From: a virus
Lineage: Duplodnaviria; Caudoviricetes
Virus record (IMG/VR): IMGVR_UViG_3300006115_000009
Span: 1-64,000 of that record
Length of the DNA: 64,000 nt
Reading direction: 5' to 3' (one strand)
Part shown: positions 29,741 through 45,142 of the stretch, piece after piece
Numbering within the stretch: position 1 is the first letter of the stretch
How the letters are laid out: every line of letters begins with the position of its first letter
Translations under genes and position numbers: made by a program
The notes under the pieces: generated by a model
What the model saw: only the letters and a program-made list of their open reading frames with translations
The model's database searches: none
Told to the model about the DNA's origin: nothing

Positions 29741-30538
29741 ATGTCACGTACTAACAACAACAACAGCACGCGCAAGGCGTGCGGAACTGTATTTACAGAA
29801 CCGACAACGCTTAGCGCGTTTGTCTACAACAACGACGGCGCAACACCGGACGATGACACACAAGCGTTAGTGTCCGTGTCGGTGGAGACTGGCGCGCTAT
29901 TGGCGAACGTCGCGGACGCGGTGTCGTTGTCCGTCGCGGACGCAACGTCCGCTATCGGTAACCGCACCGGCGCGGACGCACAGCGCGCCTATGTCGGCGC
30001 GCTGTTGTCTGGCGCGTGGTCTAGTGCCGTCGCGGACGAAGCGCGCCGACACAGCGGTAACGCGTGGAAGTTCACAACGGCCTGCGTCGTAGACAACGCG
30101 CTCGCGTCGCTTACCATTAACGCGGAAGTAGAAACCGGCGGACACGATGGCAATAACCGGACGTTGTACCTTGTCGCTACTGTGTCTACGTTCGACACCG
30201 GCGCGGAAGTTGTCCACCACGTTCACAGCGCGCGCAACGCTACGCGCATCACCGCGTCGTGCGGTTGCGTTAAGGCTTATCGCGGTGTTGTTGTCGGTGA
30301 TGCGCTAACGCTAGGTGTTCACGATGTAGCGCGCGCTATCCGCGCGTTGCGTGTCGCGGTTGCCGGTAGCGGTACTGTGTCCGCTATCCTGAACGCGGTT
30401 AAGGCACAGGAACAGCACAGCGCGGAACAGTTGTCGAACGTGCCAAACATTTGGACTGGTGGCGTAATCCGTCGCGATAAGGCGCGCGTGTCCGGTGTCG
30501 CGTTGTCGGAAGTGGCGCGCGAGATAGCGACGCGCTAA
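29741..30538 (+). CDS. Hypothetical Ala/Val/Thr-rich protein encoded in strongly purine-pyrimidine-alternating DNA
   Basis: TATGCT -10 at 29668, 5' hairpin, GAAAGG RBS, ATG 29741, downstream perfect hairpin. Confidence 0.65.
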   Translation: MSRTNNNNSTRKACGTVFTEPTTLSAFVYNNDGATPDDDTQALVSVSVETGALLANVADAVSLSVADATSAIGNRTGADAQRAYVGALLSGAWSSAVADEARRHSGNAWKFTTACVVDNALASLTINAEVETGGHDGNNRTLYLVATVSTFDTGAEVVHHVHSARNATRITASCGCVKAYRGVVVGDALTLGVHDVARAIRALRVAVAGSGTVSAILNAVKAQEQHSAEQLSNVPNIWTGGVIRRDKARVSGVALSEVAREIATR

Positions 30539-30545
30539 CCGGCGC

Positions 30546-30580
30546 GGATAACCGGCGCGGAAGTTGCGCGCCGGTTATCC
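30546..30580 (+). terminator. Perfect 14-bp hairpin
   Basis: GGATAACCGGCGCG-N7-CGCGCCGGTTATCC right after the stop codon. Confidence 0.65.
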
Positions 30581-30640
30581 GGTGGCGCGTGTCCGGCGCG
30601 CGTGTCCGTAATGGGCGCGCGCGCCGGTTGCGTGTCCGGC

Positions 30641-30822
30641 GCGACGTGGGCGCGTGGGCGCGCGACGTGGGCGCGTGGGCGCGTGGGCGCGTGGGCGCGT
30701 GGGCGCGTGGGCGCGTGGGCGCGCGACGTGGGCGCGTGGGCGCGTGGGCGCGTGGGCGCGTGGGCGCGTGGGCGCGTGGGCGCGTGGGCGCGTGGGCGCG
30801 CGACGTGGGCGCGTGGGCGCGT
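30641..30822. repeat. Tandem array (GGGCGCGT)n with interspersed GGGCGCGCGACGT variants
   Basis: About 20 units read directly. Confidence 0.95.
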
Positions 30823-30826
30823 GTCG

Positions 30827-30870
30827 TTGTCCACAACTTATCAACAAGTAATCCACAGGGCTGTGGATAA
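30827..30870. promoter_or_regulatory. Cluster of four DnaA boxes
   Basis: TTGTCCACA 30827, TTATCAACA 30838, TAATCCACA 30849, TGTGGATAA 30862 (reverse TTATCCACA); 11-bp spacing of the first three. Confidence 0.8.
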
Positions 30871-30960
30871 CCCTCGATCGGCCCCTATCGCGCCCGTGTA
30901 TGCGCGTGCGCCGAGAGCGTTTCAGGAAATTCCCCGTGTGCGCGATGTATTTCAGGGGTG

Positions 30961-31132
30961 GTCACGCGTGCGTAATCGCGCCCGTGTGCGCGTGCGCGCC
31001 CGTGTGCGCGTGCGCCTGCGCGCCCGTGTGCGTGCGTGCGTGTGCGCGCCATCGCGCGTATGCGTGCGCCTGCGTGTGCGCGTGTGCGCGCGTGCCATCG
31101 CGCGCGTGTGTGAGCGCGCGTGCGAGCGCGCG
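30961..31132. repeat. Degenerate (GTGCGC)n microsatellite
   Basis: Alternating purine-pyrimidine tract read directly. Confidence 0.85.
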
Positions 31133-31199
31133 ATAATTCTGTAAATACGCGCCACGCGTGAGAGAAATTTAGGGAATTGCCCGACGTGCGAATGTGTTC

Positions 31200-31400
31200 C
31201 TGGAAATCGCGCGCGTGTGTGAGGGAATTCCAGGAAATCCTCGCGTGTGTGCGTACACTACGCGCGGAGGCGCATCAGGAAATCGCGCAAGTGTGTGGGA
31301 AATCCTTTTTTTCCCGCGCGCAAACCCTTTTTTTACGCGTGCGCGCAACTCCTTTTTTTTCGCGCGCGTATGCGGGCAGCATTTTTTTTCGCGCGCGATA
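31200..31400. repeat. GGAAATC..CGTGTG iteron-like repeats and four T7-8 tracts separated by CGCG blocks
   Basis: GGAAAT-led copies near 30924, 31202, 31231, 31278, 31298; T-tracts near 31306, 31327, 31353, 31382. Confidence 0.65.
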
Positions 31401-31521
31401 AATCGTGCTGACCAATCGCGCGACGGCGCACACCACCGTCACCAGGAAAATTCACGGAATTCTCTGTGGTGGAATTGTATAGTGGGGTGGTATCGCGCTC
31501 GAGGTGGCACTACCACCTCCC

Positions 31522-31671
31522 CTATTCGGGGAGGCGGCGTGCGCTTGGGTGACGGCGCTTGGCCTGTTCGACGGCCTCGGCCTCGGCCAACTGAAGGGCG
31601 GCCTCCTGCCAGTTCCAGACCAGAGCGACCACGCCGTTGCTGGCGTTCTTGCGGTGTTCGGACTTCTTCAT
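31522..31671 (-). CDS. 49-aa protein, leftward cassette
   Basis: -10 TAATCT, hairpin, GAAAGGA RBS, MKKSEHRKNASNGVVALVWNWQEAALQ... Confidence 0.7.
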   Translation of the reverse strand: MKKSEHRKNASNGVVALVWNWQEAALQLAEAEAVEQAKRRHPSARRLPE

Positions 31672-31815
31672 AGTGTTCCTTTCACTTAGCGGGCTTGTCC
31701 CGCTGAAACCAGATTAACACAACGGCTCGCATCGCGCACGCGCGATTCGATCGGCCAGTGATATGCTGGATTTCGTCAGGGGGCAAGCCCCTGCCAATAC
31801 CCCAAGGGGATACTA

Positions 31816-31959
31816 ATGGCTTTCACTCAGCGACTTCAGGGCGACGTTTCAACCGGCAACGGAATGGGCGTAAACGCTTTCGGGCAAGAGGTGCGTATTG
31901 AGTTCTGCTGTCGGAACAACGCCGACGGCTACGACTGCGGTTGCGGAGAGGAGTGGTGA
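31816..31959 (+). CDS. 47-aa Cys-containing protein
   Basis: Cassette promoter and RBS; MAFTQRLQG...FCCRNNADGYDCGCGEEW. Confidence 0.65.
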   Translation: MAFTQRLQGDVSTGNGMGVNAFGQEVRIEFCCRNNADGYDCGCGEEW

Positions 31960-32058
31960 GAGGGGCAATCGCGCGCATACGCAATCGCGCCCGCGCGATG
32001 GAACCGGCTTAGTAATCTGTTGATGTAGTGATGTTGCTACCTTACGAAAGGATTTATT

Positions 32059-32157
32059 ATGTGCGAACACGGCGAGAAGTCATCAGAGCAGGTCTGCGGT
32101 ATCTGCTGGGGTGAGCCTACCCCCACCCTTGTCGCTCTCCTCGGTTGGGGGGAGTGA
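32059..32157 (+). CDS. 32-aa CxH..CxxC peptide
   Basis: Cassette promoter, GAAAGGA RBS; MCEHGEKSSEQVCGICWGEP... Confidence 0.55.
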   Translation: MCEHGEKSSEQVCGICWGEPTPTLVALLGWGE

Positions 32158-32502
32158 TGGGGGTCATCGCGCACGTGTACGCGTATGGGCGCGATGGTCA
32201 TCGTGTTTATGAAATCGTGCGCCCGCAAATGGTAAGTTCTCGGAAGCATTTCATAAAACGTTTGTGACGCAGATTTGTTTCATCGCGCTAAAAAAAATGC
32301 CTTATCGCTTTTCCACGCCCCGATTTGATTTTATCGCTATTTGGGGTAGGCGGACAGCAAGACTAAGGCATAACCCGAGGACGCAGTGCCGGTGGGCATA
32401 CCAACAGTGTAGCACAGGGGGAAGCATCGCGCTCGCGCGATTAGAAGCGTTTCTGGTATTCTGGTGGTGTTCCGGCGAAAGGCGTCGGGCGGAAAGGTAG
32501 TT

Positions 32503-32724
32503 ATGTCGGTTCCACGTCACCACCGCAACGCGGTCTTGGCTCAGTTGTTTGAGTTCCTTACTCTCGTTGTGGGTGCTATTACCCTTGTTCTCACTGAGAC
32601 TGTGTTGTTCTGGCAATACTCAGGCAACGAGTTCGGTGCGTTCCTGCTGTTCTTGCTGTTCTTCGTGGCCGGTGGGGTTCTCATCCCTATCATCGTAAAG
32701 CGGTTTAGGGCTCTGTTCCTGTAA
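32503..32724 (+). CDS. Small two-TM membrane protein
   Basis: Cassette promoter, GAAAGGT RBS; two hydrophobic segments. Confidence 0.7.
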   Translation: MSVPRHHRNAVLAQLFEFLTLVVGAITLVLTETVLFWQYSGNEFGAFLLFLLFFVAGGVLIPIIVKRFRALFL

Positions 32725-32880
32725 GGGGTCGGTGGGGTGGGTGGTCTAGGCCACCTGCCCCGCCGATTTTTTTGACCATTTGCCTATCGCGCCCGCTCGA
32801 TTATTGCGGGAATCGCGCGCCCTTACTTGGCAGCAACGCCAAAACATTTCATAAAAATCGCGCGTGAAGAAAGTATTTCG

Positions 32881-32930
32881 GAAAGCCGGCCACGTTTTCG
32901 CAAGACTTCCGCGTTCGTGACCGGCTTTCT
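32881..32930 (-). ncRNA. Candidate small structured RNA from the leftward side of the 32958 palindrome
   Basis: TACAAT -10; nested stems whose G-U wobbles work only on the minus strand. Confidence 0.45.
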
Positions 32931-33034
32931 ATTTCCATTGTAGCAAAGTCGGCTCTAATCGCGCTCGCGCGATTTGGACCGCTTCTGGTATTCTGGGGGG
33001 GCAAGGGGAGATGCCCCGAGCGAAAGGCAAGGCT

Positions 33035-33160
33035 ATGAACGGATACGACGAGCAGACACAGCGCATTCTCTCCAACCTTGAGGGCGTGGACTTCACCACC
33101 TTGAGTTTGTGGGAGTTCGAGGACTTGTTCGAGGACCGAGACCCCTTCGAGTTCATTTAG
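33035..33160 (+). CDS. 41-aa acidic peptide
   Basis: MNGYDEQTQRILSNLEGVDFTTLSLWEFEDLFEDRDPFEFI; cassette promoter and RBS. Confidence 0.65.
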   Translation: MNGYDEQTQRILSNLEGVDFTTLSLWEFEDLFEDRDPFEFI

Positions 33161-33275
33161 GCGGTGAGGGGCGGGGGCGCAAGCCCTCGCCCTTTATCCC
33201 CGCAACTCGTATCGCGCACGCGCGATTAGAACCGGATTTGTTATGCTGGGGGGGTAGCCAAACGAAAGGGAGATT

Positions 33276-33467
33276 ATGGCATACAGCGAGACAATAGAGA
33301 GCCGTAGGGGCGAGGTTCTAAAGGGCGCACAGATTACAGAGGTGCTAAAGGCTCACGGCTTAGGCATACAGGGGTTTGCGTCGTTCCTAGATGACATTGG
33401 CGGCCTAGAGGAATACAACGAGGGCGGCATCCTTTGGGAAGAACTGATGGGGTGGTTGGGCTACTAG
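33276..33467 (+). CDS. 63-aa acidic protein
   Basis: Cassette promoter and RBS. Confidence 0.7.
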   Translation: MAYSETIESRRGEVLKGAQITEVLKAHGLGIQGFASFLDDIGGLEEYNEGGILWEELMGWLGY

Positions 33468-33566
33468 CCCAATCACTTCACCCATCGCGCGTATACAGGT
33501 TCTTATCGCGCCCGCGCGATTTGGGGAGTTTTGTTATGCTGGAAACGTCAGAGAGAAAGGACACCA

Positions 33567-33770
33567 ATGAAACTGACACTGAGAGGCAAAAGGGTAGTTG
33601 TGTGGGGCGTTGCGCTGTTGGCGTATGCGCTGGCGTACTTCCACTTCGATAGCGAGATACCGCTAGACAACGTGGACGTTGTGCGTCAATGGGTGGCGGT
33701 CGGCCAGTCGCTACTAGTGGCGGTTCCGGTGCTGTTCGCCGGTGCTTACTTCGCAACACGGAAGGAGTAA
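33567..33770 (+). CDS. Small two-TM membrane protein
   Basis: GAAAGGA RBS; MKLTLRGKRVVVWGVALLAY... Confidence 0.7.
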   Translation: MKLTLRGKRVVVWGVALLAYALAYFHFDSEIPLDNVDVVRQWVAVGQSLLVAVPVLFAGAYFATRKE

Positions 33771-33859
33771 GCAGTACCCTTATCGCGCACGCGCGATTAG
33801 GGGGTCGCTGTGTTATTCTGGATTTGTCGGGGAGACGCCCCGCGGGAAAGGCAACAACA

Positions 33860-34132
33860 ATGGCAACACACACGAGCAACCGAGAGGCGTGGCGTTTCAT
33901 CGCCGAGCGCAAGCCGTTTCAGGGTAGCAACCTACGAGCGGAATACACGCTAGGGGACTACCTTATCTATTCCTACTCAACGCTAGTTGCATACATCGCT
34001 AAGACCGGCGAAACGTGGATTACGCCCGAGAAGTACAGCCAGACAACCGGACGGCACAAGTCGCACATTCGCCGAGGGTTCGAGGCGTACAAGGACAAGC
34101 ACGACACGCCCGAGAAGGTCGCAAGTCTGTAA
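33860..34132 (+). CDS. Phage early hypothetical protein (YSYxTLVA...YSQTTGRH type)
   Basis: Cassette promoter and RBS; motif pattern common in small phage proteins. Confidence 0.7.
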   Translation: MATHTSNREAWRFIAERKPFQGSNLRAEYTLGDYLIYSYSTLVAYIAKTGETWITPEKYSQTTGRHKSHIRRGFEAYKDKHDTPEKVASL

Positions 34133-34291
34133 GTCTGCTAGGGGTCGGGGTGGGTTGCCCTGCCCCCTAGCAACACCCCCCATCGCGCGTTTTGATTTCT
34201 ATACTCTTTCTTCCATCGCGCCCGCGCGATTTGAGCCGTCTGTGTTATTCTGGAAGCAACGGGGAAACGCCCCGAGGGAAAGGCAGGCATT

Positions 34292-34471
34292 ATGTCTGAA
34301 GCACGCACGTCGGTATTCCTCACCGACGTAAAGCCCGAGACGGTTTACGTCTCAGTTAGCCTAGAGGACGATTTGGTCGTTCTCGACCTTGACGGCCTCA
34401 CGGTTTATTCGCCGGTAGCGGTCATCAAGGAAGTTCTGGCTCAGGCTGCCGAGCGCAAGTTGGCCGAGTAG
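34292..34471 (+). CDS. 59-aa protein
   Basis: Cassette promoter and RBS; not in ORF track. Confidence 0.65.
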   Translation: MSEARTSVFLTDVKPETVYVSVSLEDDLVVLDLDGLTVYSPVAVIKEVLAQAAERKLAE

Positions 34472-34593
34472 TCCGAGGGTGGGTCGGGGGGAAACCCCCG
34501 ACCTAGCCCACCACTGCCATCGCGCCCGCGCGATAGAACCCGATTTGTTATGCTGGAAACGTAGGGGGCAAGCCTCTGCGGGAAAGGGTACAA

Positions 34594-34758
34594 ATGTACA
34601 GGTTAATTATTTGCAAGGACGGCTCTATTGAGTCGGAGGTCAAGTTCGACAACTATTCTTCGGCGGTGACGCTCTGTGAGCACCTTCGCCAGCAGGCTTG
34701 GAAGCACGAGGAAGTGGACTCGGAGTACTACGTCACTCGCACTGAAGTCGTGTATTAG
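34594..34758 (+). CDS. 54-aa protein
   Basis: Cassette promoter and RBS; not in ORF track. Confidence 0.65.
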   Translation: MYRLIICKDGSIESEVKFDNYSSAVTLCEHLRQQAWKHEEVDSEYYVTRTEVVY

Positions 34759-34914
34759 GAAAGGTCGGGGTGCAGTTTTGCCCCGCCCTTTTTTATCGCG
34801 CACGACTTTTCCCCATAATAGTCCAGTAATTTCTATCGCGCCCGCGCGATTCGGCCCTTGTTGGGCTAATCTGGGTGTGTTGCCGGAGACGCCGGCGACG
34901 TGGAAGGGGTTCCT

Positions 34915-35298
34915 ATGCTTACAGCAACTAAAGTTGTGGAAGCGGTCAAGGCTAATGGCGGTGTATCGCTGAACATTGACGGCGCAGCGCCCACTAGCGG
35001 TTTTATGGTGTCGCTGGGTGCTAAGTGGTCTTACGTTGCCAGCGCGGACGTGTTGGACGACATTGCCAGCGCCGTGAACGTTGTGGGCGGTTTTCTCAAC
35101 CGGCACAAAGTAGAGTTGTCCGCTAAGACTAACTATCTCGGTGCGTGGTTGTATGAAGGTCAGGTGTACCTAGACGTATCGGAATGCGTGAGCGACATTG
35201 ACGACGCGGTGAACGCCGGCATTGAACGTAATCAAATCGCAGTCTGGGACGTTGTCGCCGGTGCGGAAATCGCCACCGGCGGAAATGGGGAGGTGTGA
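34915..35298 (+). CDS. Phage hypothetical protein (GFMVS...YLGAW...YLDVS...QIAVWD)
   Basis: Cassette promoter; motif pattern recurrent in actinophage early genes. Confidence 0.72.
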   Translation: MLTATKVVEAVKANGGVSLNIDGAAPTSGFMVSLGAKWSYVASADVLDDIASAVNVVGGFLNRHKVELSAKTNYLGAWLYEGQVYLDVSECVSDIDDAVNAGIERNQIAVWDVVAGAEIATGGNGEV

Positions 35299-35638
35299 AT
35301 GCCCCAAATCCTAAATCGCGCACATATTAATCGCGCTCGCGCGATGGAGAAATCCAGCAAATCCCTAGTCGCGCGCGGCACGCCAGGAAAACTTTCATAA
35401 AAACTCCGTGATGAAAGTGTGTTTCTATGAGCGTCTTAGTCGCTCGCTTCGGCGTTCCCTGTTCTCCGGTGTCTAAGAACCTTACCGGCAGTGTCCGTTC
35501 TCACTGTTTGCTACATACCTTTCCTTCCCTCTGTTGCCAATAAGTATAAGCCAAATGTCCCATCGCGCTCGCGCGATTTAGGGATTTCTGGGCTATTCTG
35601 TTTGGGCAGGGGGAAACGCCCCCAGCGAAAGGAAAGAA

Positions 35639-36052
35639 ATGGCAACCATCAACCTAAAGGTGTCGAAGGCGAAACTCGTCTCGGCACTCGAAACCAAGTT
35701 AGAGCAAATCAAGACTAACAAGGCTAACGAAAAGAAGGCACTTCAGGTTCACGAGAAGGCTGTAGAGGCGTGGCGTAAGAAGGTCTTGGCGAGTATCCCC
35801 AAGACCCGAAAGCCGGACGAGTTCTCAGTCTGTACGCTCGGCTACGGCTCGTTCGCTGGCAAGACTAAGGTAGAAATCACCTACTACCTCGACAAAGCCC
35901 CCGAACGTCCTGAGAACGACGTGGAAGCGTTGCCGGACTACGCCTACCGCGAAACAGTGTCGGACATTGAGAGTGCGCTTCGTATCCTCGCCCTGAGCGA
36001 CGAGGAGACAGTCAGCACTAGCACCTACAAGTCTGTGGCTAAGTACCTTTAG
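35639..36052 (+). CDS. Hypothetical basic protein
   Basis: Cassette promoter and RBS, 137 aa. Confidence 0.75.
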   Translation: MATINLKVSKAKLVSALETKLEQIKTNKANEKKALQVHEKAVEAWRKKVLASIPKTRKPDEFSVCTLGYGSFAGKTKVEITYYLDKAPERPENDVEALPDYAYRETVSDIESALRILALSDEETVSTSTYKSVAKYL

Positions 36053-36187
36053 CCCAGCCAAAGGAGTGGGTCGGGGTTCTGCCCCGACCCACTCCGCCTT
36101 TCCCCCTAGGGCATCGCGCACGCGCGATTGGGGGGATTTCTGCTAATCTGGAGTTGTCGGGGGCAAGCCTCGACGGAAAGGGAAACA

Positions 36188-36319
36188 ATGGAAACCATCT
36201 GGCAGTCAGTATTGACAAGCGAGTTCGTATCGGGTCTCGACCCTGACAACTTGCCTTACCTTATCCGCGACTTGGAAAAGTCTGTGGAAGCAGTCTGCCG
36301 TGAGTGGGGGTTGCTCTAA
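36188..36319 (+). CDS. 43-aa protein
   Basis: Cassette promoter and RBS. Confidence 0.6.
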   Translation: METIWQSVLTSEFVSGLDPDNLPYLIRDLEKSVEAVCREWGLL

Positions 36320-36606
36320 TGGGTAGCCTTCACGCTCACGAGTTCGCAGAGTTGGCCGGCGAGGGGGTGATTAGCCTAGAGCAGTCTATCGCTGTTCATC
36401 TCACCAGCAACCACTATCCGCCCGTGCCAACGTCAATGGTGCCGGCCTGTATTCAGGCCATCGAAGCCTGTAACGAGGACGAAGCCGACCGCCTTATCGA
36501 CTTGCCCGACGGCGTGTTCTGGCGTCTGGGGGCAACGTCTGCGCCAGCGTGGGCAGTCGTTGAGGGGCATCACCTAGAGCCGTGGGTCTACTACGACGAG
36601 GACTGA
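36319..36606 (+). CDS. Phage hypothetical protein (HLxSNHYPPVP...HHLEPW)
   Basis: TAATG coupling; conserved-looking His motifs. Confidence 0.7.
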   Translation: MGSLHAHEFAELAGEGVISLEQSIAVHLTSNHYPPVPTSMVPACIQAIEACNEDEADRLIDLPDGVFWRLGATSAPAWAVVEGHHLEPWVYYDED

Positions 36607-36765
36607 GGGGTGGCGGGGCGAAAGCCCTGCCATTCCCCCCACCTAATCGCGCACGCGCGATAATCCAGTAATTGTGGGACAATAAACGTATCGCGCCCGC
36701 GCGATTTAGCAGTCTTTGGTGTATCATTGAGGTATCGGGGAAGCGCCCCGATAGGAAAGGAAGTT

Positions 36766-36981
36766 ATGGCAGAGCGTTCTGACGCACGAGTTAGCACCGA
36801 TATCCACTTGCGAGGTATCGAGACCGAAATTGAGGTCACCTACTACGACAACTTTGTCACTGTTGAGTTCGGCAACTGGCGCAACGGCACGACCAAGTTG
36901 TATCTGACCAAGGAGCAAGCACAACTGCTCTCCAACAAGATTGCCCAAACCGCCCTTGCGGATATCTACGCTGTAGCGTAG
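36766..36981 (+). CDS. 71-aa protein
   Basis: Cassette promoter and RBS. Confidence 0.7.
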   Translation: MAERSDARVSTDIHLRGIETEIEVTYYDNFVTVEFGNWRNGTTKLYLTKEQAQLLSNKIAQTALADIYAVA

Positions 36982-37103
36982 TCGGTGGGTGGGTCGGGGG
37001 AAACCCCGACCTACCTACTACCCCCCTATCGCGCCCGCGCGATTTAGGGTTCCCTGTGATACGCTGTTGGTGTTCCGGAGAAGCCGGAGCAGGAAAGGTA
37101 AGT

Positions 37104-37436
37104 ATGGAAGCAATTGAGATTACAGTTAAGACTTCTGTTAACGCACAGGAGTTCTGGGATGAAGTTACCGGCTGTGCTTGGGAAACGTGGGACTGGTGGA
37201 CTGGCGTTCACTTTGACTCTCCCCTCGGTGCGGAAATTGGTGCAATTAGCATCGACTACATCGACCCCGAGACCGACGAGGAGTGCGAGGAAACTCGTGT
37301 CATCACCATTCACGACTTGGTGTCGGCCTACGAGAAGGCGTCTGCGGCTCACTATATTGACTGGCAGAACCTCGACGCCTCGTCCGGTGACGTTATCTTC
37401 CAGTACGCCATCTTTGGCGAGGCCGTCTACGGCTAA
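37104..37436 (+). CDS. Acidic phage hypothetical protein (DASSGDVIFQYAIFGEAVYG)
   Basis: Cassette promoter and RBS. Confidence 0.72.
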   Translation: MEAIEITVKTSVNAQEFWDEVTGCAWETWDWWTGVHFDSPLGAEIGAISIDYIDPETDEECEETRVITIHDLVSAYEKASAAHYIDWQNLDASSGDVIFQYAIFGEAVYG

Positions 37437-37437
37437 T

Positions 37438-37453
37438 TGTTTCACGTGAAACA
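37438..37453. other. parS site (perfect chromosomal consensus)
   Basis: TGTTTCACGTGAAACA, one base after a stop codon. Confidence 0.85.
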
Positions 37454-37688
37454 TCTCCCCGGGGCCGGTTGGGTTGGCTGGCCCCGGGGATATTACCCCC
37501 CCCCATCGCGCGAGCGCGATAGGAATAGTCCAGGGATTTCCCTACGCGCGGATGCGGCTGCGCGCCACAAACGTTTTGGGAAAGTTCTGTGATGCGAATG
37601 TGTTTTTAACGCATCGCGCGCGCGCGATTAGACCAGTGATTTGGTATGCTGGGTGTGTTCCGGAAACGCCGGCACAAGAAAGGTAGAA

Positions 37689-38102
37689 ATGGGTCTCGAC
37701 CAATACGCATACAAGGTGGATGCTAATCCACTAAACACCGACTTCTCGTTTGAGCGTGAGGATGACGAGGGTGTCACCATCTACAGCGAAATCGCCTACT
37801 GGCGTAAGCACCCCAACCTTCAGGGCTTTATGGAAGCCCTGTGGAACCACAAGCGCATCGAACAGCCCAACAACGGCGTGGATGAGGACGCTTGGTTTAA
37901 CTGCCAGCCGGTTCGCCTCACCCTAGAGGACTTGGCCGACTTGGAGAAGTGCGTCAAGAACAAGTTGCTTCCCAGCACCACTGGCTTCTTCTTCGGTGAT
38001 GACGGAGACGATTATTACAAGAAGGATGACCTTAAGTTCATTAAACAGGCTCGTAGTGCCATCAAGGACGGCTACGAGGTCTATTATGATAGTTGGTGGT
38101 AA
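37689..38102 (+). CDS. Phage hypothetical protein (MGLDQY...YWRKHPNLQGFM)
   Basis: Cassette promoter and RBS. Confidence 0.75.
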   Translation: MGLDQYAYKVDANPLNTDFSFEREDDEGVTIYSEIAYWRKHPNLQGFMEALWNHKRIEQPNNGVDEDAWFNCQPVRLTLEDLADLEKCVKNKLLPSTTGFFFGDDGDDYYKKDDLKFIKQARSAIKDGYEVYYDSWW

Positions 38103-38258
38103 CCATACTGACGGCTAGTTTGCGGCCGTCACAGGGCGTTCTAGGGGTCTCTCAGAGGCTTCTAGAACGCCCACCTTTCCAACCATCGCGCACGCGCGAT
38201 TGGGAAGGTTTCTGTTATTCTGGTTTCGGCGGGGAAAAGCCCCCCAAGAAAGGTAAGT

Positions 38259-38570
38259 ATGCCAACTTTACAGCAATACATTGAGGCGTGTGAGGAAACC
38301 GCACCAGAGGGCGCCGTTGTCGCTTTCTACAACAACGACCCTTATTGGGCAACGTATGAGAAGGCCGACGTCGACGACTTTCGGCGCTCACTAGAGGACA
38401 GTTATCGGGGAGCGTATGACAGCGGTGAGGAATACGCTGAGGAGTTGACTAGTCAGTATTACATCATCCCCGATGGTTTGGAAGCGTACATTGACTACGA
38501 AAGTATGTGGACTGATATGCGTTATGGGGGCGCTTGGTTCGTTGACGGCTACGTCTTTGTTCCCTGCTGA
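38259..38570 (+). CDS. ArdA-like acidic antirestriction protein (C-terminal-domain type)
   Basis: Highly acidic; 'YRGAYDSGEEYAEE...IPDGLEAYIDYESMWTD' resembles ArdA C-terminus. Confidence 0.6.
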   Translation: MPTLQQYIEACEETAPEGAVVAFYNNDPYWATYEKADVDDFRRSLEDSYRGAYDSGEEYAEELTSQYYIIPDGLEAYIDYESMWTDMRYGGAWFVDGYVFVPC

Positions 38571-38685
38571 GCCGGCCGGTCTCGAAGTTTGAGGCCGGTG
38601 GCTTCTATCGCGCCCGCGCGATTGGGGAGACGTTTGGTAATCTGGGTTCGCAAGGGGAAACGCCCCGAGCAAGAAAGGAAACACA

Positions 38686-38952
38686 GTGGCAACGCAATAC
38701 GCAGTGACCCTAGATTTGGGCAACCTAAAGGGCCCAGACGGAAACGCCTTGTCTATCGTGGCTAAGGCTAAGTCAGCACTAAGTCAGTTGGGCGAGTCTC
38801 GTCAAGAGATTGACAACTTTATCAGTGAGGCACTTAGCGGTGACTACGACCACGTTATCGAGACTGTGCGCAGTCGCTTCCACTACGTCACTTGGACTGG
38901 CTACAGTCTGGGCGAGGACAGTGGGGATGAGTGGGATGATGACGATGAGTGA
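38686..38952 (+). CDS. Hypothetical protein (GPDGNALSI...SGDYDH)
   Basis: GTG start, cassette promoter and RBS. Confidence 0.7.
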   Translation: MATQYAVTLDLGNLKGPDGNALSIVAKAKSALSQLGESRQEIDNFISEALSGDYDHVIETVRSRFHYVTWTGYSLGEDSGDEWDDDDE

Positions 38953-39091
38953 GGGGCTGTCGGAATACGAACGCCTTTTGCTCATTGAGAACCTAAGAGA
39001 CTTGCGTGGTCGTATCGGCAACGATGCCAACGAGCAACTGGCTACGGCTATCGGGTCGCTTATCTGGTCTATAGGTGGCGGAGATGAGTAA
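38945..39091 (+). CDS. 48-aa protein
   Basis: Overlap-coupled. Confidence 0.55.
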   Translation: MSEGLSEYERLLLIENLRDLRGRIGNDANEQLATAIGSLIWSIGGGDE

Positions 39092-39371
39092 GTACGTTTA
39101 TCAGGCAAGGGTAGTGCTGGAGTTCTTTGTTGAGGCTACCAGCGCCGAGGAAGTCGAACCAGCGGTTCAGGTCTTTATGAACCACATAGCCGAGGCCGAC
39201 CAGTTACTAGAAAGCCCCTATTCTTGGGAGTTTGCCGACTGGCAGATAACCGAGGTGGCCGATGAGGACGAACTTGGCGAGTGCGACACCTGTGGAAAGT
39301 CGTATGATTTGGCTAGTCGTGACGGCCGGTGCGGAGACTGTGGCAACTGCTCCGACCACTGTACCGATTAG
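39084..39371 (+). CDS. Acidic protein with C-terminal Cys cluster
   Basis: 'CDTC...CGDCGNCSDHC'. Confidence 0.65.
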   Translation: MSKYVYQARVVLEFFVEATSAEEVEPAVQVFMNHIAEADQLLESPYSWEFADWQITEVADEDELGECDTCGKSYDLASRDGRCGDCGNCSDHCTD

Positions 39372-39482
39372 CCGGTGGCTACCCCGAAGTTTGGGGTAGT
39401 TGCCACCCATCGCGCCCGCGCGATTAGGGGATTTGTTGATACACTGTTGGCATACCGGAAACGCCGGTTAGGAAAGGAAACA

Positions 39483-39773
39483 ATGTCGGAACACGAACAC
39501 AACCACGAGGGCTTCATCATCAACGAGAAGGAGTTTGAGTTGCTGGGCGGTGCTGTCTTGCTGGCTACGGCAGGTGCTTACGTTGAGTGGCAGGCTGACG
39601 AGAACGACTTGGCACTTCAGTTTATTGCCAACGACTACCGCGACCTGCTCAACAAGTTGGCACCTTACTCAAATATCATCCAGTCAACTTTCACTAGCGA
39701 CGAGTTCACTCGGAACATCAACAAGCAGATTGAGGAACGCAAGGCGCAGAAAGCGCAAGAAGCGCAGGGTTAG
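39483..39773 (+). CDS. Hypothetical protein
   Basis: Cassette promoter and RBS. Confidence 0.7.
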   Translation: MSEHEHNHEGFIINEKEFELLGGAVLLATAGAYVEWQADENDLALQFIANDYRDLLNKLAPYSNIIQSTFTSDEFTRNINKQIEERKAQKAQEAQG

Positions 39774-39897
39774 CCGGTGCGACAGGGTGGGGAAACCCAC
39801 CCTGTCGTATCCCCCGAACATATCGCGCGCGCGCGATTTGGGGAACCAACTGATACGCTGTTTGTGTGCCGGAAACGCCGACACGGAAAGGGATGAA

Positions 39898-40785
39898 ATG
39901 AACGCCTACGAAGTAGTGGCCCAGACGATTATTGACCAACTCGCAGAAGGTACCGCACCTTGGCGTAAGGAGTGGGTGGCGAGTGGATACGTGCCTAAGT
40001 CGCTGTCCTCACGCAAGCGGTACAACGGCATTAACCACTGGCTTCTGTCGTTCTCCGCATATGCCAAGGGCTACAACTCGCCTTGGTGGGGTACGTACAA
40101 GCAGATTACCGAACTTGGTGGCAACGTCATCAAGGGCGAGAAGGGTACGCCGGTAGTTCTGTGGCGTCAGTTGGAGACCGAGGACGCCGACGGCAAGCCC
40201 AAGAAGGCAGTGGTGATGCGTTACTTCACTGTCTTTAACGCCGAACAAGCGGAATGGGAGAAGGGAGCGCCCAAGTACGAAGCGCCGTTCTCTCGCCCAG
40301 ACTTCGAAATTATCGAAGGTGCTCAGCGAGTTGTAGGGGATTACTTCGGGCGAGAGGGTGCGCCTAAGTTGTCGTATGACGGAGATAGGGCTTTCTACTC
40401 GCCGTTGACCGATAGCATCACGTTGCCCGAGCGAACCAAGTTCACTACCGACCACGGCTTCTACGCCACTTCTTTCCACGAGATTGCCCACTCAACTGGT
40501 CACAAGAACCGGCTCAACCGAGAGGGTGTCGTTGAGGGTCACGGCTTCGGTTCGGCACGCTACTCAGAGGAAGAGTTGGTGGCAGAGTTCACCGCTGCTT
40601 TCCTGTCCGCCGAGACTGGCATTCTGCCAGAAACGCTGGACAACTCAGCGTCCTACGTGGCGAGTTGGTACAAGGTGCTTAAGAACGACCCGAAGTTGTT
40701 GGTCAAGGCAGTGGCACGAGCACAGAAGTCGGCGGACTACGTGCTGAACCGCAAGGCAACCGAGACCGAGGGGGCGGTGGAGTAA
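39898..40785 (+). CDS. ardC: ArdC-like antirestriction protein (ssDNA-binding N-domain plus zincin-like domain)
   Basis: 'APWRKEW', 'YNGINHWLL', 'WGTYKQ...KGEKG', 'YFTVFNAEQ', 'AFYSP..D.ITLP', 'HEIAHSTGH', 'YSEEELVAE'. Confidence 0.88.
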   Translation: MNAYEVVAQTIIDQLAEGTAPWRKEWVASGYVPKSLSSRKRYNGINHWLLSFSAYAKGYNSPWWGTYKQITELGGNVIKGEKGTPVVLWRQLETEDADGKPKKAVVMRYFTVFNAEQAEWEKGAPKYEAPFSRPDFEIIEGAQRVVGDYFGREGAPKLSYDGDRAFYSPLTDSITLPERTKFTTDHGFYATSFHEIAHSTGHKNRLNREGVVEGHGFGSARYSEEELVAEFTAAFLSAETGILPETLDNSASYVASWYKVLKNDPKLLVKAVARAQKSADYVLNRKATETEGAVE

Positions 40786-40990
40786 TCCACCGCTTTCCCC
40801 CAATCGCGCACGCGCGATGGCGGCGTCAATAAATCCTAAAGAAACGCGCGGGCGGCACGACCTCGGAAAAGTTTCACAAAAACTTCGTGTCGAAAGAGTA
40901 TTTCGCGTATCGCGCCCGCGCGATTTTCGGGGGTTATGTTATTCTTGTATTGGTTGGGAAAGCCCTGGCCAAATTTAGATAGGAGTAAAT

Positions 40991-41311
40991 ATGTGTGAAG
41001 AGACAGAACCAAAGGAGTTCACTAGCAACGAGTTGGTGTATATCGCTAAAGATGGCGGTTATGGTGATGCTATCGGTATGTTGTTACTAGACCCCCGAAC
41101 GATTGGTGAGGGCGGACTGGAGCAACTTAACAATGCTGTTCGAAACGGAGAGAGTCTGTGGGAGTTTGTTCTGCGTCAACACGACGAGGGTAATGCTATC
41201 CAGGCAGGCGTGCACGTTATTTATGAGAACGGATACGTCTTTGGCGGGGACTTCTTTAAGCAGATACCGGCCGTCCTGAGCAAACTCAACCCCGAGTTGT
41301 TCCCTAGTTAA
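40991..41311 (+). CDS. Hypothetical protein
   Basis: Cassette promoter, AGGAG RBS. Confidence 0.7.
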   Translation: MCEETEPKEFTSNELVYIAKDGGYGDAIGMLLLDPRTIGEGGLEQLNNAVRNGESLWEFVLRQHDEGNAIQAGVHVIYENGYVFGGDFFKQIPAVLSKLNPELFPS

Positions 41312-41432
41312 TAGGTATCCCCTGAGTAATTCAGGGGAGACCTATGGCATCGCGCGCGCGCGATTAGACCCCGAAATGCTACACTGGATTTGTCGAGGAG
41401 ATGCCTCGGCAGGTATGAAAGGAAACAAACCT

Positions 41433-41702
41433 ATGGGCAAGCCCCAAGCAGTACCGGAAGTAATCTGGCAGGAACCGCCAGTAGCAACTAAAAACTCACG
41501 CAAGGGAAACGGCAAGTACGCACTCATTGAGTTGTCGCTACGTGCCAACCCCGGCCAGTGGGCTTTGGTTCAGGAGAGCGAGAAGTCCGTTGGTGGACTG
41601 CCTCGCTTCGCAGGCCCCGACTTCGAGCGTGCGTACCGCACAGTTCGAGAGGGTATCCGAACCTTCAACCGCTACTACGTTCGCTTCGTCGGGCGTAAGT
41701 AG
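41433..41702 (+). CDS. Small basic protein (LRANPGQWALV), possible DNA-binding
   Basis: Cassette promoter, GAAAGGA RBS. Confidence 0.65.
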   Translation: MGKPQAVPEVIWQEPPVATKNSRKGNGKYALIELSLRANPGQWALVQESEKSVGGLPRFAGPDFERAYRTVREGIRTFNRYYVRFVGRK

Positions 41703-41977
41703 CGAAAGGTCAGGCTGTTAAAGGGTACCTTTCCCCGCCCACCGCAACTCTCTAGCAGGGTTGCGGTGGGTCAGCCGCTTCTCTATTTTTTTGTGGCCGA
41801 TACCATCGCGCTCGCGCGATAGTTCAGGCATTTGCTAATGTGGTGTATCGCGCTGGCGCGAGGCGAATTTCAGGAAATTTCTGATATGGTTTGGGTATCG
41901 CGCCCGCGCGATTAGGGGGTCTATCCCCTACACTGGATACGTCGAGGGAAACGCCCCCGACAACGAAAGGAAAGAAT

Positions 41978-42706
41978 ATGCCGTATAACAACAACACAGG
42001 TCTGCCACTCGCACAGTGCTGGCAGGACTTCCACGATGTATTGGACGCCGGTATTAACAAGGTCGTTCTCTACGGCCCCCCCGGTACTGGCAAGACCTAC
42101 GCCGGTCTCACCTACGGACTGGGTGACCGACCAGCGTTCCGTCTCCCTTGTACTGAGGATATGACGGACAGCGAGGTTCGTGGTGCTTGGATGCCCAGCG
42201 AGACTGGTGCGTTTGTCTGGCACAACGGACAGGGTACTAGGGCGTGGGCTACCGGCGGTCGCTTGGTCGTGGACGAGGTAGACCGAGCCAGCGGTGACGT
42301 TCTGTCGCTTCTGCTTGCCTACACCGACAGCGAGGCTTCGGCTTCGGTGGACTTGCCTACCGGCGAGACTATCCGACCCTATGACGGCTTCTCGGCTATC
42401 CTGACTTCCAATATCGAAAGTCCTGATGACTTGCCGACAGCGTTGCGTGACCGCTTTCCGGTTGCCCTGAACATTAACGTTCCGCACCCCGAAGCGTTGA
42501 TGACGTTGCCCGAACACTTGCGGACTGTCGCTACGGCGGTAGTGTCTGCCGAGCCTCACCGCCGAGCGTCGTTGCGAGCGTTCTACGCCTACGACACGCT
42601 TATCAAGGGCGGTCTGTCGCAAGAGCGTTCGGCAGAACTCACGTTCGGCAAGGTACGTGCCGAGGCGATTATCGAAGCACTGCGCTTCGGTCGCTTGGGA
42701 GCGTAG
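41978..42706 (+). CDS. MoxR/CbbQ/CobS-type AAA+ ATPase
   Basis: GPPGTGKT Walker A, 'LVVDEVDRAS' Walker B, 'ALRDRF' sensor. Confidence 0.9.
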   Translation: MPYNNNTGLPLAQCWQDFHDVLDAGINKVVLYGPPGTGKTYAGLTYGLGDRPAFRLPCTEDMTDSEVRGAWMPSETGAFVWHNGQGTRAWATGGRLVVDEVDRASGDVLSLLLAYTDSEASASVDLPTGETIRPYDGFSAILTSNIESPDDLPTALRDRFPVALNINVPHPEALMTLPEHLRTVATAVVSAEPHRRASLRAFYAYDTLIKGGLSQERSAELTFGKVRAEAIIEALRFGRLGA

Positions 42707-42707
42707 T

Positions 42708-42723
42708 TGTTTCACGTGAAACA
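42708..42723. other. parS site (perfect chromosomal consensus)
   Basis: TGTTTCACGTGAAACA, one base after a stop codon. Confidence 0.85.
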
Positions 42724-42865
42724 ATGGTCGGTAGGGGCGGTGGTAACACACCGCCCCTGCCTACCAGCCACCCAGCCCTAATCGCGCCCGCGCGATTTGG
42801 GGGGTTCTGGGCTACAATGGATACGTACCGGAAACGCCGGTACATCAGTGAAAGGGAATATCACT

Positions 42866-44302
42866 ATGGCAACAAAGAAGCAAGAGATAACTAACGTTAT
42901 CTATCCAGAGTTGGTGGAAGCACTGCGCAAGGACACCGAGGGAGTACAGACGTGGAAAGTCCGAGCCGGTGGCTCAAGCCGAGGGGAAGCCTTTACCGAC
43001 TTCGGTACTCACACTATCCAAGTGCCGTTCGGCAACGAGGACGCGGTGCGGTTGGTGCGAGCGCACGAACTCGCTCACACTCGCATTAGCCCTACCGACC
43101 ACGAGGCGTTAGCAGAGTGGGCGGAGTTTAACGGAATATCTGACCGAGTATTATCTTGCGCCGAGGAGTGGCGAGTTAATGCCGTTGTCGGCAAACTTGG
43201 CTACGACCTCGACCTACTTGCGGACGGCACAGAGAGCGCACTAGGCAAGCGTATTGCCGAGACCAATACGCCCGAAGCCTTTAACGAGATGGTGGCTTTC
43301 GGTGCTGGCTTGGTCGGTACTAAGGCGTTTAACGCCTACAAGCGTGGGGTGAACTCCGTGAACAAGGAGTGGGCTACTGTTCTGGGCGAGTTGTCGAAGC
43401 AGGTTAAGAAAGTTGTTAACAAGTACGATACTGTTCGCAATATCGGAGACACCGAGTTAATCCACTTTAAGTCGGACAGTGACACTACCTTGCCACGTGG
43501 CTTTATCAACTACACCGGCAAGGTGGCGGAGATTATCGCTAGTTTCCAGCGTCCTATCTCTCAGGACGAGAGCAAGGGGTCTAGTGGCGTGAACTACGAC
43601 ACCGGCTTTCAGGCAGGTCAGTTCGCACCGCTAAAGGTGGACACAGTTCACCGCCCAGACAAGCAGGTTAAGGGTCACTTGGCTAAGAAGCGTATCTACT
43701 CGACGAGTGGCAAGGCGGTTCGCAACGCCTCTCGCCTACTTACCGACCCCCAGAAGCGTATCTTTTCACGGAAAGTTCGTGCCAACGGCGGTATTGTTGT
43801 AATCGACTTGTCTGGCTCAATGGATTTGTCTAGCGACCAACTCGACCAACTGCTCGACGCAAGCCCCGGTGCGCTGGTCGTGGGCTACACTCACGGCAAG
43901 AAAGTGGCTCACAAGCCTAACTTCTGGGTGCTGGCGGAGAAGGGCAAGCGTATTAGCGACTTGTCTAAGGTTGGTGGCAATATCGGCAACGGCGTGGACG
44001 GCCCAGCGTTGGAGTGGGCTATCGCTCACCGCCGAGGTAGCGAGCCGATTATCTGGGTCTGCGACGGACAGGTGACGGACAGTCAGGACAAGGCTTTCAC
44101 GCTGGGTGCGTATCTCTGCGCTCAAATGATGATTAAGCACCGCATTATCCAACAGCCGACTGTTGAGGGTGCTATCAAGGTCTTGTCTAATCCCAGCAGT
44201 GCTAAGTCCGAATACGCTGGTCGTGTGTCGTACTTTATCCCAGCAAGTCGGAACTACAACGCTACCTACGTCGCTAAATACAAGGACGGCTACGCCGAGT
44301 AG
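42866..44302 (+). CDS. HExxH metallopeptidase-like plus vWA domain protein (CobT-like AAA partner)
   Basis: 'RAHELAH' N-terminal; MIDAS 'IDLSGSM', later 'VCDG'. Confidence 0.82.
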   Translation: MATKKQEITNVIYPELVEALRKDTEGVQTWKVRAGGSSRGEAFTDFGTHTIQVPFGNEDAVRLVRAHELAHTRISPTDHEALAEWAEFNGISDRVLSCAEEWRVNAVVGKLGYDLDLLADGTESALGKRIAETNTPEAFNEMVAFGAGLVGTKAFNAYKRGVNSVNKEWATVLGELSKQVKKVVNKYDTVRNIGDTELIHFKSDSDTTLPRGFINYTGKVAEIIASFQRPISQDESKGSSGVNYDTGFQAGQFAPLKVDTVHRPDKQVKGHLAKKRIYSTSGKAVRNASRLLTDPQKRIFSRKVRANGGIVVIDLSGSMDLSSDQLDQLLDASPGALVVGYTHGKKVAHKPNFWVLAEKGKRISDLSKVGGNIGNGVDGPALEWAIAHRRGSEPIIWVCDGQVTDSQDKAFTLGAYLCAQMMIKHRIIQQPTVEGAIKVLSNPSSAKSEYAGRVSYFIPASRNYNATYVAKYKDGYAE

Positions 44303-44842
44303 CACAAGGTCAGGAGATTAAAGGGTTCACCCTTTCCCCCGCCCCACTCACCGGCTTCGGCTGGTGGGTGGGGTTCTCCGCTTCCCCCATATCGCGCGGG
44401 CGCGATGAGTAATTCTAGAACTACCTAGTAATCGCGCTGGCGCGATGGCCACATATCGCGCATAAAAAACGCCTGGGCGCAGTAGGTCGAGGAGAAAGTT
44501 TCATAAAATCTCTGTGACAGAAATGTATTTTTGACGACGTGGCCGACGTCGATGCCATCGCGCGGGCGCCATCACAACGTATCGCGTTAAAGAAACGCCC
44601 GGATGTGGCCGCGAAGGGCCAGACGTTTACTGAAAATGCCTGTGAAAAAAGTGTATTTTAAACCTTATTAACTACTCATTAATGACAATAAGGTACATTA
44701 AGGGTTAGTTACTGTAGGGTTTGTGGCCTTAAAAGTACACATACGCGCGTGAAATCGCATTTAGACAGGCGAAAACGGCATACTTTTCTCCCCAAACATC
44801 AATAATTGCTTGGAAGATGTAGGGGAAAGGTACTTTCCGGTA

Positions 44843-45142
44843 CTACTCTGGACGCAAGACAGCCAGAATGCCGTCCCACGTTACCGTTACGTAGTCTTTA
44901 CCCTCTAACTGTATTCCATAAGCCTTAGCGTGGTCGAAGACAATCTCATCTCCTACCTGTACCGGGCTGGTGAGTACGTTGCCCTTGTCGTCCTTAGTGT
45001 CTGCCCCCACCGAAATTACGGTGGCGGTCTTTGGCAATGGTTGAGTGTGCTTAGGTAGGACGAAGCCGGACTCTGTTACCTTGTCCTCGTGGACCAATTC
45101 AATAATGACTCGGCCCGGGGTGCTTTTAAACGTGTCGCTCAT
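44843..45142 (-). CDS. groES: Co-chaperonin GroES (Cpn10)
   Basis: 'GRVII', 'TESGFVLP', 'VISVG', 'VQVGDEIVF', 'EGKDY...ILAVL'. Confidence 0.92.
   Translation of the reverse strand: MSDTFKSTPGRVIIELVHEDKVTESGFVLPKHTQPLPKTATVISVGADTKDDKGNVLTSPVQVGDEIVFDHAKAYGIQLEGKDYVTVTWDGILAVLRPE

Follow-up and report, generated by a model that had tools for sequence, protein, structure and literature searches.

An island of about 24 small, self-contained expression cassettes, sharing a 16-bp CG-rich palindrome (ATCGCGCNCGCGCGAT) that occupies the place of the -35 box, lies at positions 31522–44672 of the viral DNA analyzed here. The window is the first 64 kb (64,000 nucleotides) of the Caudoviricetes record IMGVR_UViG_3300006115_000009 in IMG/VR, which totals 78,902 bp with 120-bp terminal repeats and is rated 100% complete. 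The virus (G000 in the comparisons below) is a lytic-looking, uncultured actinobacterial myophage; it encodes three WhiB-family proteins, and its host is therefore taken to be an actinobacterium. We read the island as an early-gene module for anti-restriction and host takeover, in which about 24 insulated and standardized cassettes are placed under a shared operator, most likely for a repressor, and we give that reading roughly even chances. Observed directly were the anatomy of the units, their conservation in relatives, the substitution of the palindrome for the -35 box, and the permuted order of cassettes.

A repeated palindrome in the -35 position

Allowing up to two mismatches, the palindrome occurs at 33 sites between 31731 and 44572, where 0.25 would be expected by chance and where 100 shuffles of the sequence gave a maximum count of 2. 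With the central two bases left free (ATCGCGC-NN-GCGCGAT), 30 of the 33 sites are perfect and the remaining three carry one mismatch. The centers include CC, TC, TG, GG and GA, and three sites are perfect AT(CG)6AT. All copies are intergenic and fall within the one 13-kb island, and none was found outside it in the whole 78,902-bp genome. A literature search on the motif string returned unrelated primers only. The palindrome seems to behave as a protein operator, with invariant arms, a free center, auxiliary copies and extra half-sites; together with strictly intergenic placement and the eight half-sites of one orientation in the origin-like block upstream of the island, these features point to a predicted binding site for a symmetric protein.

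A -10-like hexamer (TAnnnT) is found 13–16 nt downstream of 23 palindromes (24 if the site at 41805 is counted), compared with a background rate of 5%, and the gap is 15 nt in 11 and 16 nt in 9 of these 23. Seventeen of the 23 hexamers carry a TGn extension, giving the consensus TGnTAnnCTGG, and in 22 cases a purine (G in 19, A in 3) stands 7 nt beyond the hexamer. If transcripts start at that purine, 20 of the 23 leaders open with a 5–8-bp GC hairpin bearing a 5-nt A-rich loop (AAACG, AGACG or GCAAG), with a mean z-score of -2.3 relative to shuffles. Leaders average ~34 nt and finish in GAAAGG-type ribosome-binding sites followed by ATG. At least 17 of the 23 units are closed by a GC hairpin of -22 to -48 kcal/mol from which a T-run is mostly absent, and hairpins without a T-run are the usual terminator form in Actinobacteria. 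A scan for T-tailed canonical terminators showed no enrichment (14 found, 13.8 expected), and an Rfam scan of the island returned nothing above threshold.

Canonical promoters are missing from the island. The pattern TTGACN-N16-19-TAnnnT occurs 0 times inside it and 16 times outside, and a consensus promoter scan (-35 plus -10) yielded 3 matches against 6.3 expected. Canonical TTGACA promoters precede the plus-strand genes at 23799 and 24832. Mirror-image extended -10 boxes were also seen on the opposite strand, 14–15 nt from the palindrome, at 31731 and at three or four further sites (among them 32426, 32958 and 34835); from those at 32426 and 32958, antisense transcripts would run through copies of a second repeat, element B, described below.

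Much of this anatomy had been anticipated in an earlier note made from the letters alone (the sequence-only reading). Its count of about 30 copies confined to a 13-kb island, its assignment of a sigmaA-like -10 to at least 23 of them at 13–16 bp, the lack of TTGACA at -35 inside the island with its presence elsewhere, and the GC-rich terminator hairpin per unit are all borne out. Its leader hairpin likewise stands, with loops that are pentaloops and not the GNRA tetraloops described. The proposed layout of one palindrome per unit needs amending: the promoter cassettes do lack a -35 box, but 10 of the 33 palindromes are not linked to a promoter, and at least one, that at 31731, also drives a leftward cassette.

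Conservation in relatives and replacement of the -35 box

The sequence-only reading had called for a motif scan across related phages. In IMG/VR the palindrome was found in multiple copies in nine other contigs, five of which were retrieved and compared; each of these genomes has one palindrome island. Structural and replication genes are 40–80% identical to those of G000 at the amino acid level and syntenic outside the island. Across five phage lineages of 43–53% GC, whose core proteins share this 40–80% identity, the 14 arm bases are identical. Outside the phage family the palindrome was seen in single copy only, mostly in high-GC contigs, and one of the 97 viral contigs with a single hit had a compatible -10.

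Within a genome, palindrome and -10 keep a near-constant spacing (to ~1 bp), though the spacer sequences differ; between genomes it varies as follows.

G005: 11 bp
G002: 12 bp, in 20 of 27 sites
G003: 14 bp
G000: 15 bp
G001: 24–27 bp

In G005 (L138), seven promoter-linked sites are 14-bp forms with abutting arms (ATCGCGCGCGCGAT, at 813, 1086, 1797, 3744, 4770, 8532 and 9447). The same island holds seven 16-bp sites, and both forms place the proximal arm at the same distance from the -10. In G001, the palindrome is followed immediately by a good -35 box (TTGACA, TTGACC or GTGACA), apparently an intermediate stage.

A sister lineage (G008, G024 and G025) has a portal protein 73–77% identical to that of G000, closer than that of G001 or G002, and zero copies of the palindrome in its contigs, which are incomplete. 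The small-gene cassettes of G008 have TTGACA-N17-TGnTAnnnT promoters together with the same leader hairpin and ribosome-binding site. Because these palindrome-free cassettes are the same units behind canonical -35 promoters, the palindrome of G000 does take the place of the -35 box.

Cassette content and shuffling

The features of the island are listed below; (+) and (-) denote strand.

31522–44672: whole island, with 24 promoter cassettes, 10 auxiliary palindromes and 7 copies of element B
31522–31746 (-): leftward cassette on the mirror side of palindrome 31731; TGT.TAATCT 14 nt away, hairpin, GAAAGG, 49-aa open reading frame (ORF) 31522–31671
31731–31959 (+): cassette 1; palindrome 31731–31746, -10 at 31762–31767 (TGA.TATGCT), 47-aa ORF 31816–31959
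31984–32157 (+): cassette 2; palindrome, -10 TAATCT at 32013, 32-aa ORF
32426–32724 (+): cassette 3; TGG.TATTCT, 73-aa membrane-like ORF; minus-strand mirror -10 TGC.TACACT
32786–32801: auxiliary palindrome with 1 mismatch and without -10, followed by element B
32847–32876 (+): element B core (TTTCATAAAAA..GTG..GAAAGTRTTT); other cores at 32249, 35392, 37574, 40872, 44499, 44626 and 30920
32958–33160 (+): cassette 4; TGG.TATTCT, 41-aa ORF; minus-strand mirror -10 TGC.TACAAT
33211–33467 (+): cassette 5; 63-aa ORF
33505–33770 (+): cassette 6; 67-aa ORF
33782–34132 (+): cassette 7; 90-aa ORF with homologues in G001 and G005
34215–34471 (+): cassette 8; 59-aa ORF
34519–34758 (+): cassette 9; 54-aa ORF
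34835–35298 (+): cassette 10; 127-aa ORF; weak mirror -10 TATTAT
35330–35345: auxiliary palindrome without -10, followed by element B
35562–36052 (+): cassette 11; 137-aa ORF
36113–36606 (+): cassette 12; two ORFs, 36188–36319 and 36304–36606
36646–36661: auxiliary palindrome; promoter palindrome 36690 lies 44 bp downstream
36690–36981 (+): cassette 13; 71-aa ORF, preceded by that auxiliary site
37028–37436 (+): cassette 14; 110-aa ORF
37505–37520: auxiliary palindrome, 108 bp upstream of 37613
37613–38102 (+): cassette 15; 137-aa ORF; element B between it and the preceding auxiliary site
38185–38570 (+): cassette 16; ArdA-like antirestriction protein, 103 aa
38607–39371 (+): cassette 17; two ORFs, 38686–38952 and 39075–39371
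39409–39773 (+): cassette 18; 96-aa ORF
39822–40785 (+): cassette 19; ArdC-N plus zincin metallopeptidase protein, 295 aa
40803–40818: auxiliary palindrome, 106 bp upstream of 40909
40909–41311 (+): cassette 20; 106-aa ORF; element B between it and the preceding auxiliary site
41349–41702 (+): cassette 21; basic 89-aa ORF 41433–41702
41805–41862: two auxiliary palindromes, 41805 and 41847, 42 bp apart; 41847 is 50 bp upstream of 41897
41897–42706 (+): cassette 22; AAA_5 ATPase, 242 aa, with both of these auxiliary sites upstream
42781–44302 (+): cassette 23; 478-aa protein, phrog_33218
44391–44572: three terminal palindromes (44391, 44431 and 44557) without -10, with two copies of element B among them; they form the island's right border
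30887–31498 (+): non-coding block upstream, with eight ATCGCGC half-sites in one orientation and four element B-like copies; adjoins the DnaA boxes and the (CGTGGGCG)n array

The 26 cassette ORFs are mostly tiny (median ~90 aa) and many are acidic. Protein family scans (Pfam, PHROG) covered ~70 proteins of the phage rather than every ORF, and Pfam families were assigned to only 3 of the 26 (ArdA, ArdC-N plus peptidase, and AAA_5). The cargo is of the kind expected of an early, anti-defense and host-takeover region.

Comparison of cassettes between relatives, also called for in the sequence-only reading, showed that orthologous cassettes keep their orientation and change their order while the core stays syntenic. 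The order is 37689 / 38686 / ArdC in G000 and ArdC / 38686 / 37689 in G001 (f-h-j versus j-h-f); G003 and G005 show block permutations, and G002 has yet another order. Between G003 and G005, homologous patches correspond to single cassettes bounded by palindromes. A closer relative, L407, is collinear with G000 at 98.7% identity, and no near pair with a clean junction at a palindrome was found. The permuted order fits the earlier suggestion that cassettes are gained and lost by recombination at the repeats, and we infer that the repeated terminator-operator-promoter modules may serve as homology seams for cassette swaps between related phages.

The contigs of two further genomes that are 74–78% complete, G006 and G007 (L213–L220), end exactly at the island borders. 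Short-read assemblies probably break at such repeated or hypervariable sequence, and islands of this kind may be under-represented in viral catalogues.

Proposed mechanism

From the arrangement of these sites we infer protein binding, the direction of regulation and its timing. Each unit begins after the GC-rich hairpin terminator of the preceding unit with the palindrome and its 13–16-bp gap, leading to an extended -10 (TGnTAnnCT) that the host housekeeping sigma factor would read, and to a predicted start at the G 7 nt on. A 5'-terminal mRNA hairpin, presumably a stabilizer, would then precede the GAAAGG site and one or two small ORFs. The palindrome would cover about -43 to -28, where a -35 box would be. 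One sequence-specific dimeric (or oligomeric) protein, probably cooperative, would bind the palindromes such that the cassettes switch together. The promoters would fire unaided at DNA entry and then shut off as the regulator accumulates, with auxiliary operators 40–50 bp and ~106 bp away and half-sites assisting the shut-off through cooperative binding or looping.

A repressor is favored because the promoters look complete without help, with TGn on 17 of 23 and a full -35 plus extended -10 in G001, and because the gap shifts by about half a helical turn between lineages (11, 12, 14 and 15 bp; 24–27 in G001), which steric occlusion would tolerate better than an activator's set contact with the polymerase. 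The existence of ten promoter-less palindromes and extra half-sites argues in the same direction, as does the need for ArdA- and ArdC-type genes at once; anti-restriction genes must be made immediately upon DNA entry.

Several findings weigh against a repressor. The gap is fixed to ~1 bp per genome (exactly 12 bp in 20 of 27 sites in G002), as an activator or sigma adaptor needs, and in G005 the proximal arm stands equally far from the -10 at an arm spacing of either 0 or 2 bp, which hints that this arm may act as a promoter element. A phage-encoded repressor would rarely have an operator that stays the same in phages so divergent; the stoperators of Cluster A phages drift together with their repressors (PMC6550527). 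The presumed binding protein was also not found among the phage candidates examined: two helix-turn-helix (HTH) proteins are common to all motif-bearing genomes, namely an HTH_36 protein and an 80-aa winged-helix protein, and neither fits. Presence-absence profiling of G000 genes found none that tracks the motif, a weak test given the incomplete motif-lacking contigs.

Candidate binding proteins

The HTH_36 initiator-like protein (297 aa, 52342–53235) was rejected as the binder, its N-terminal domain existing in at least three unrelated versions among motif-bearing genomes. Across the family the C-terminal two thirds is kept and the N-terminal DNA-binding domain exchanged, and the G001 version of that domain is shared with the motif-lacking G024. 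The 80-aa winged-helix protein (ORF 56385), one of the candidates named in the sequence-only reading, has weak Pfam hits (E about 1e-3) and no relative in PDB. Its recognition helix differs in the motif-bearing G002 and resembles that of the motif-lacking G024, and its candidacy is not supported by these comparisons. Another of them, ORF 41433, is missing from some motif-bearing genomes. Neither the 249-aa gene diverging from the island (28813–29562) nor a conserved 234-aa gene (48781–49485) showed a family or repressor-like neighbors in the atlas.

Alternative explanations

A dimeric activator or sigma adaptor bound to the palindrome could replace -35 recognition by sigma region 4, making the cassettes factor-dependent promoters; we regard this as possible, though tentative. 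In its favor, the palindrome sits exactly at the missing -35 box, and the gaps of 11–12 bp (G005, G002) and 14–16 bp (G003, G000) are too short for an ordinary -35. The distance from a MotA box to the -10 is 11–13 bp, to which these gaps are close. Holding the gap to ~1 bp per genome despite unrelated spacers, the constant proximal-arm gap of G005 at 0 or 2 bp, and the mirror-image promoters driven by each of four palindromes also speak for such a factor, and an early activator could be expressed from the TTGACA promoters that precede two plus-strand genes (23799 and 24832). There is an actinobacterial precedent for a factor that replaces -35 recognition (PMC8635444). On the other hand, the G001 promoters with full TTGACA and extended -10, and with the palindrome further upstream, should need no activator; half-helical-turn shifts between lineages are hard to fit to a fixed protein-polymerase contact; no promoter accompanies ten of the palindromes; immediate-early expression is expected of anti-restriction genes; and the proteins scanned include no MotA, AsiA, WYL-domain or sigma-factor family. 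A more specific form, of similar and rather low probability, is a symmetric sigma adaptation site for the whole early regulon, at which a dimeric factor, maybe host-encoded or injected, would replace the sigmaA region 4 contact. The relatives do appear to form a series running from the canonical -35 (G008) through a palindrome beside the -35 (G001) to a palindrome instead of it (G000, G003, G002 and G005 at 15, 14, 12 and 11 bp); if that proposal is true, the series would record the evolution of such a promoter class.

A host factor is about as probable: the palindrome would recruit a conserved protein of the host, repressing or activating, in the manner of DnaA boxes and parS sites. The site is identical in phages whose own regulators diverged or were swapped, no phage gene tracks its presence, and the genome carries perfect host-type parS sites (37438, 42708) and DnaA boxes (30827–30870). 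Yet palindrome-free close relatives (portal 73–77%) from the same sample series manage without it, and a search of metagenomes for the palindrome in a promoter setting gave 57 loci of which the single-site ones are chance-like: these are mostly high-GC and apparently coding, without a ribosome-binding site and start codon, and the low-GC rest resemble fragments of this phage family. We know of no actinobacterial regulator with such a site. The sequence-only reading had offered a dimeric operator or a structural switch, and the operator-like features favor the former. That alternating CG would form Z-DNA or a cruciform and make the promoters supercoiling-dependent with no dedicated protein is, in our estimate, very improbable. 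The sites can be written as AT(CG)nAT-like, as in the 14-bp form of G005, a 10-bp form near the origin-like region of G007 and three sites of G000. Purine-pyrimidine alternation is, however, interrupted at the center in 23 of the 33 G000 sites; a hairpin with a 6-bp stem and 4-nt loop would yield -5.4 kcal/mol per strand, small relative to a 16-bp GC-rich duplex; and the terminal AT/AT and exact arm sequence are invariant, which neither structure demands. Equally hard to credit is a role purely in recombination or mobility, as attC-like sites or targets of a site-specific enzyme, with no part in transcription. The order permuted among relatives and the palindrome-bounded homology patches of G003 and G005 would suit it, but the -10 distance is fixed within each genome, no site-specific recombinase appeared in the scans of ~70 proteins, and ERF, RecA and YqaJ serve general recombination. 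General homologous recombination between repeated modules suffices, as proposed for the PeSLs (promoter-early stem-loops) of T4-type phages (PMC2839356).

Comparison with known systems

To its statement that no (CG)n-palindrome system had been described, which holds for this sequence, the sequence-only reading would have to add that the architecture has precedents (PMC2839356, PMC4122927, PMC4351075). In the PeSLs of T4-type phages (PMC2839356, PMC4122927), as here, modules of a terminator hairpin and an early promoter lie between small, mostly orphan genes in a hyperplastic region. Related T4-type phages differ in the genes they carry, and in their order, at these modules, which the permuted cassette order seen here resembles. 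PeSL promoters are strong sigma70 promoters with a -35 and no operator, whereas here an invariant 16-bp palindrome replaces the -35, the host is actinobacterial and the units have a 5'-terminal leader hairpin.

Among actinophages, Cluster O mycobacteriophages have a 17-bp dyad repeat (TGTTCGGNNNCCGAACA) in >30 copies, with a 7-bp inverted repeat and a free center (PMC4351075). A dimeric regulator is suspected, and recombination between copies gives indels (PMC4351075). The palindrome shares with it an actinophage setting, >30 copies, invariant arms and a free center. The sequences differ, as does the spacing (7-3-7 in Cluster O, 7-2-7 here and 7-0-7 in G005). Cluster O sites are scattered, about a third in genes and most away from promoters, and the authors deemed a transcriptional role unlikely (PMC4351075); here all sites are intergenic in one 13-kb island and 23 of 33 are in register with a -10. 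Cluster A stoperators (PMC9283540, PMC6550527) resemble our proposed reading in that one protein silences many units through many operator copies. They are asymmetric 13–14-bp sites, bound by a monomer, orientation-dependent, genome-wide and active on elongation, in temperate phages with a known repressor gene with which the motif co-evolves (PMC9283540, PMC6550527). The site described here is in contrast symmetric, at the promoter and invariant across lineages.

The middle promoters of T4 use a MotA box and AsiA. These promoters and those of mycobacterial PafBC (PMC8635444) share with the island a sigma70/sigmaA-type -10, often with TGn, and no -35. Their conserved box lies 8–13 bp upstream of the -10, nearer than a -35 would; the gaps here are 11–12 bp in G005 and G002, 14–16 bp in G003 and G000, and 24–27 bp in G001, where a -35 is present. 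The MotA and PafBC boxes are asymmetric, while the present element is a palindrome that also has promoter-less copies and coexists with a -35 in G001; no MotA/AsiA or WYL-domain PafBC-type family (Pfam, PHROG) was found in the phage proteins scanned. Integrons differ in having a tyrosine integrase, 57–141-bp attC sites and promoterless cassettes, compared with 16-bp sites, one promoter per cassette and no integrase among the proteins scanned here. Particular to this island is that, in an actinobacterial phage, a CG-rich palindrome overlaps the -35 position and supplants the box, with relatives that show stages of the change.

If the repressor reading is true, the island would represent a compact, portable control element for Actinobacteria, a 16-bp operator in a -35-less extended -10 promoter, and a natural library of ~24 standardized units, each with an mRNA-stabilizing leader and an insulating terminator. 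The relatives would form a comparative series showing a phage turning ordinary early promoters into a single regulon, and a new host phylum would be added for promoter-terminator modules as gene-shuffling seams in phage anti-defense regions. The identity of the binder would tell whether uncultured freshwater-type actinophages recruit a conserved host protein; judging by its DnaA boxes and parS sites, the genome already appears to recruit host proteins.

Auxiliary palindromes, element B and an origin-like block

The ten palindromes without a -10 lie 40–50 or 106–126 bp from promoter palindromes. Between paired palindromes is element B, a conserved stretch of ~35–60 bp (TTTCATAAAAA-N5-GTG-N4-GAAAGTRTTT), of which further similar copies occur at 30920, ~31160 and ~31445. 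No conserved RNA fold was detected on either strand, and element B is therefore best regarded as a DNA-level element. Its opposite strand is homologous to tandem AATACGTTTTTTTGAC..TGYTACYAG repeats of the palindrome-lacking G008 and G025, and it is likewise homologous to an element beside the G001 palindromes. It may represent a second class of promoter or a site for protein-induced bending.

A non-coding block of 64% GC at 30540–31500, immediately preceding the island, contains 23.5 copies of CGTGGGCG, GTGCGCGC-type repeats and four T7-8 tracts. DnaA-box-like sequences at 30827–30870 comprise TTGTCCACA and an inverted TGTGGATAA. By its composition this block looks like a replication origin. 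The equivalent block in G007 contains three copies of TGTGGATAA and 10-bp ATCGCGCGAT palindromes.

Two perfect 16-bp host-type parS sites (TGTTTCACGTGAAACA) lie at 37438–37453 and 42708–42723, directly 3' of the stop codons of cassettes 14 and 22, and the G001 island holds two near-perfect copies (10369 and 11243). They could reflect recruitment of host ParB or a plasmid-like carrier state; no ParAB family was seen among the proteins scanned.

Genome context and neighboring genes

The closest cultured phages are Arthrobacter myophages at ~33% protein identity, and the palindrome is absent from the four examined. Neither the island nor the structural region had a nucleotide match by megablast among 50,697 GenBank phages. 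The minus strand encodes the tail sheath, tape-measure protein, portal and large terminase. Replication and recombination genes include a DnaB-like helicase, the HTH_36 protein, an SF2 helicase, a RecA-like protein, YqaJ, ERF and SSB; families of integrases or other site-specific recombinases were absent from the ~70 proteins scanned.

A 268-aa ORF (29732–30538) in very GCGC-rich DNA, with no family match, is flanked by the divergent 249-aa gene on one side and the origin-like block on the other. Its -10 (TATGCTGG) is of the island type, with no palindrome, and the one homologue seen is in L066. A dNMP-kinase-like ORF (24142–24846) has an annotated 5' end that overlaps tRNA-Asn and tRNA-Gln, and its real start is therefore probably further downstream. 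A phage Dam-type N6-adenine methyltransferase is encoded at 27671–28084, and a GroES-like co-chaperonin (44843–45142, minus strand) adjoins the right side of the island.

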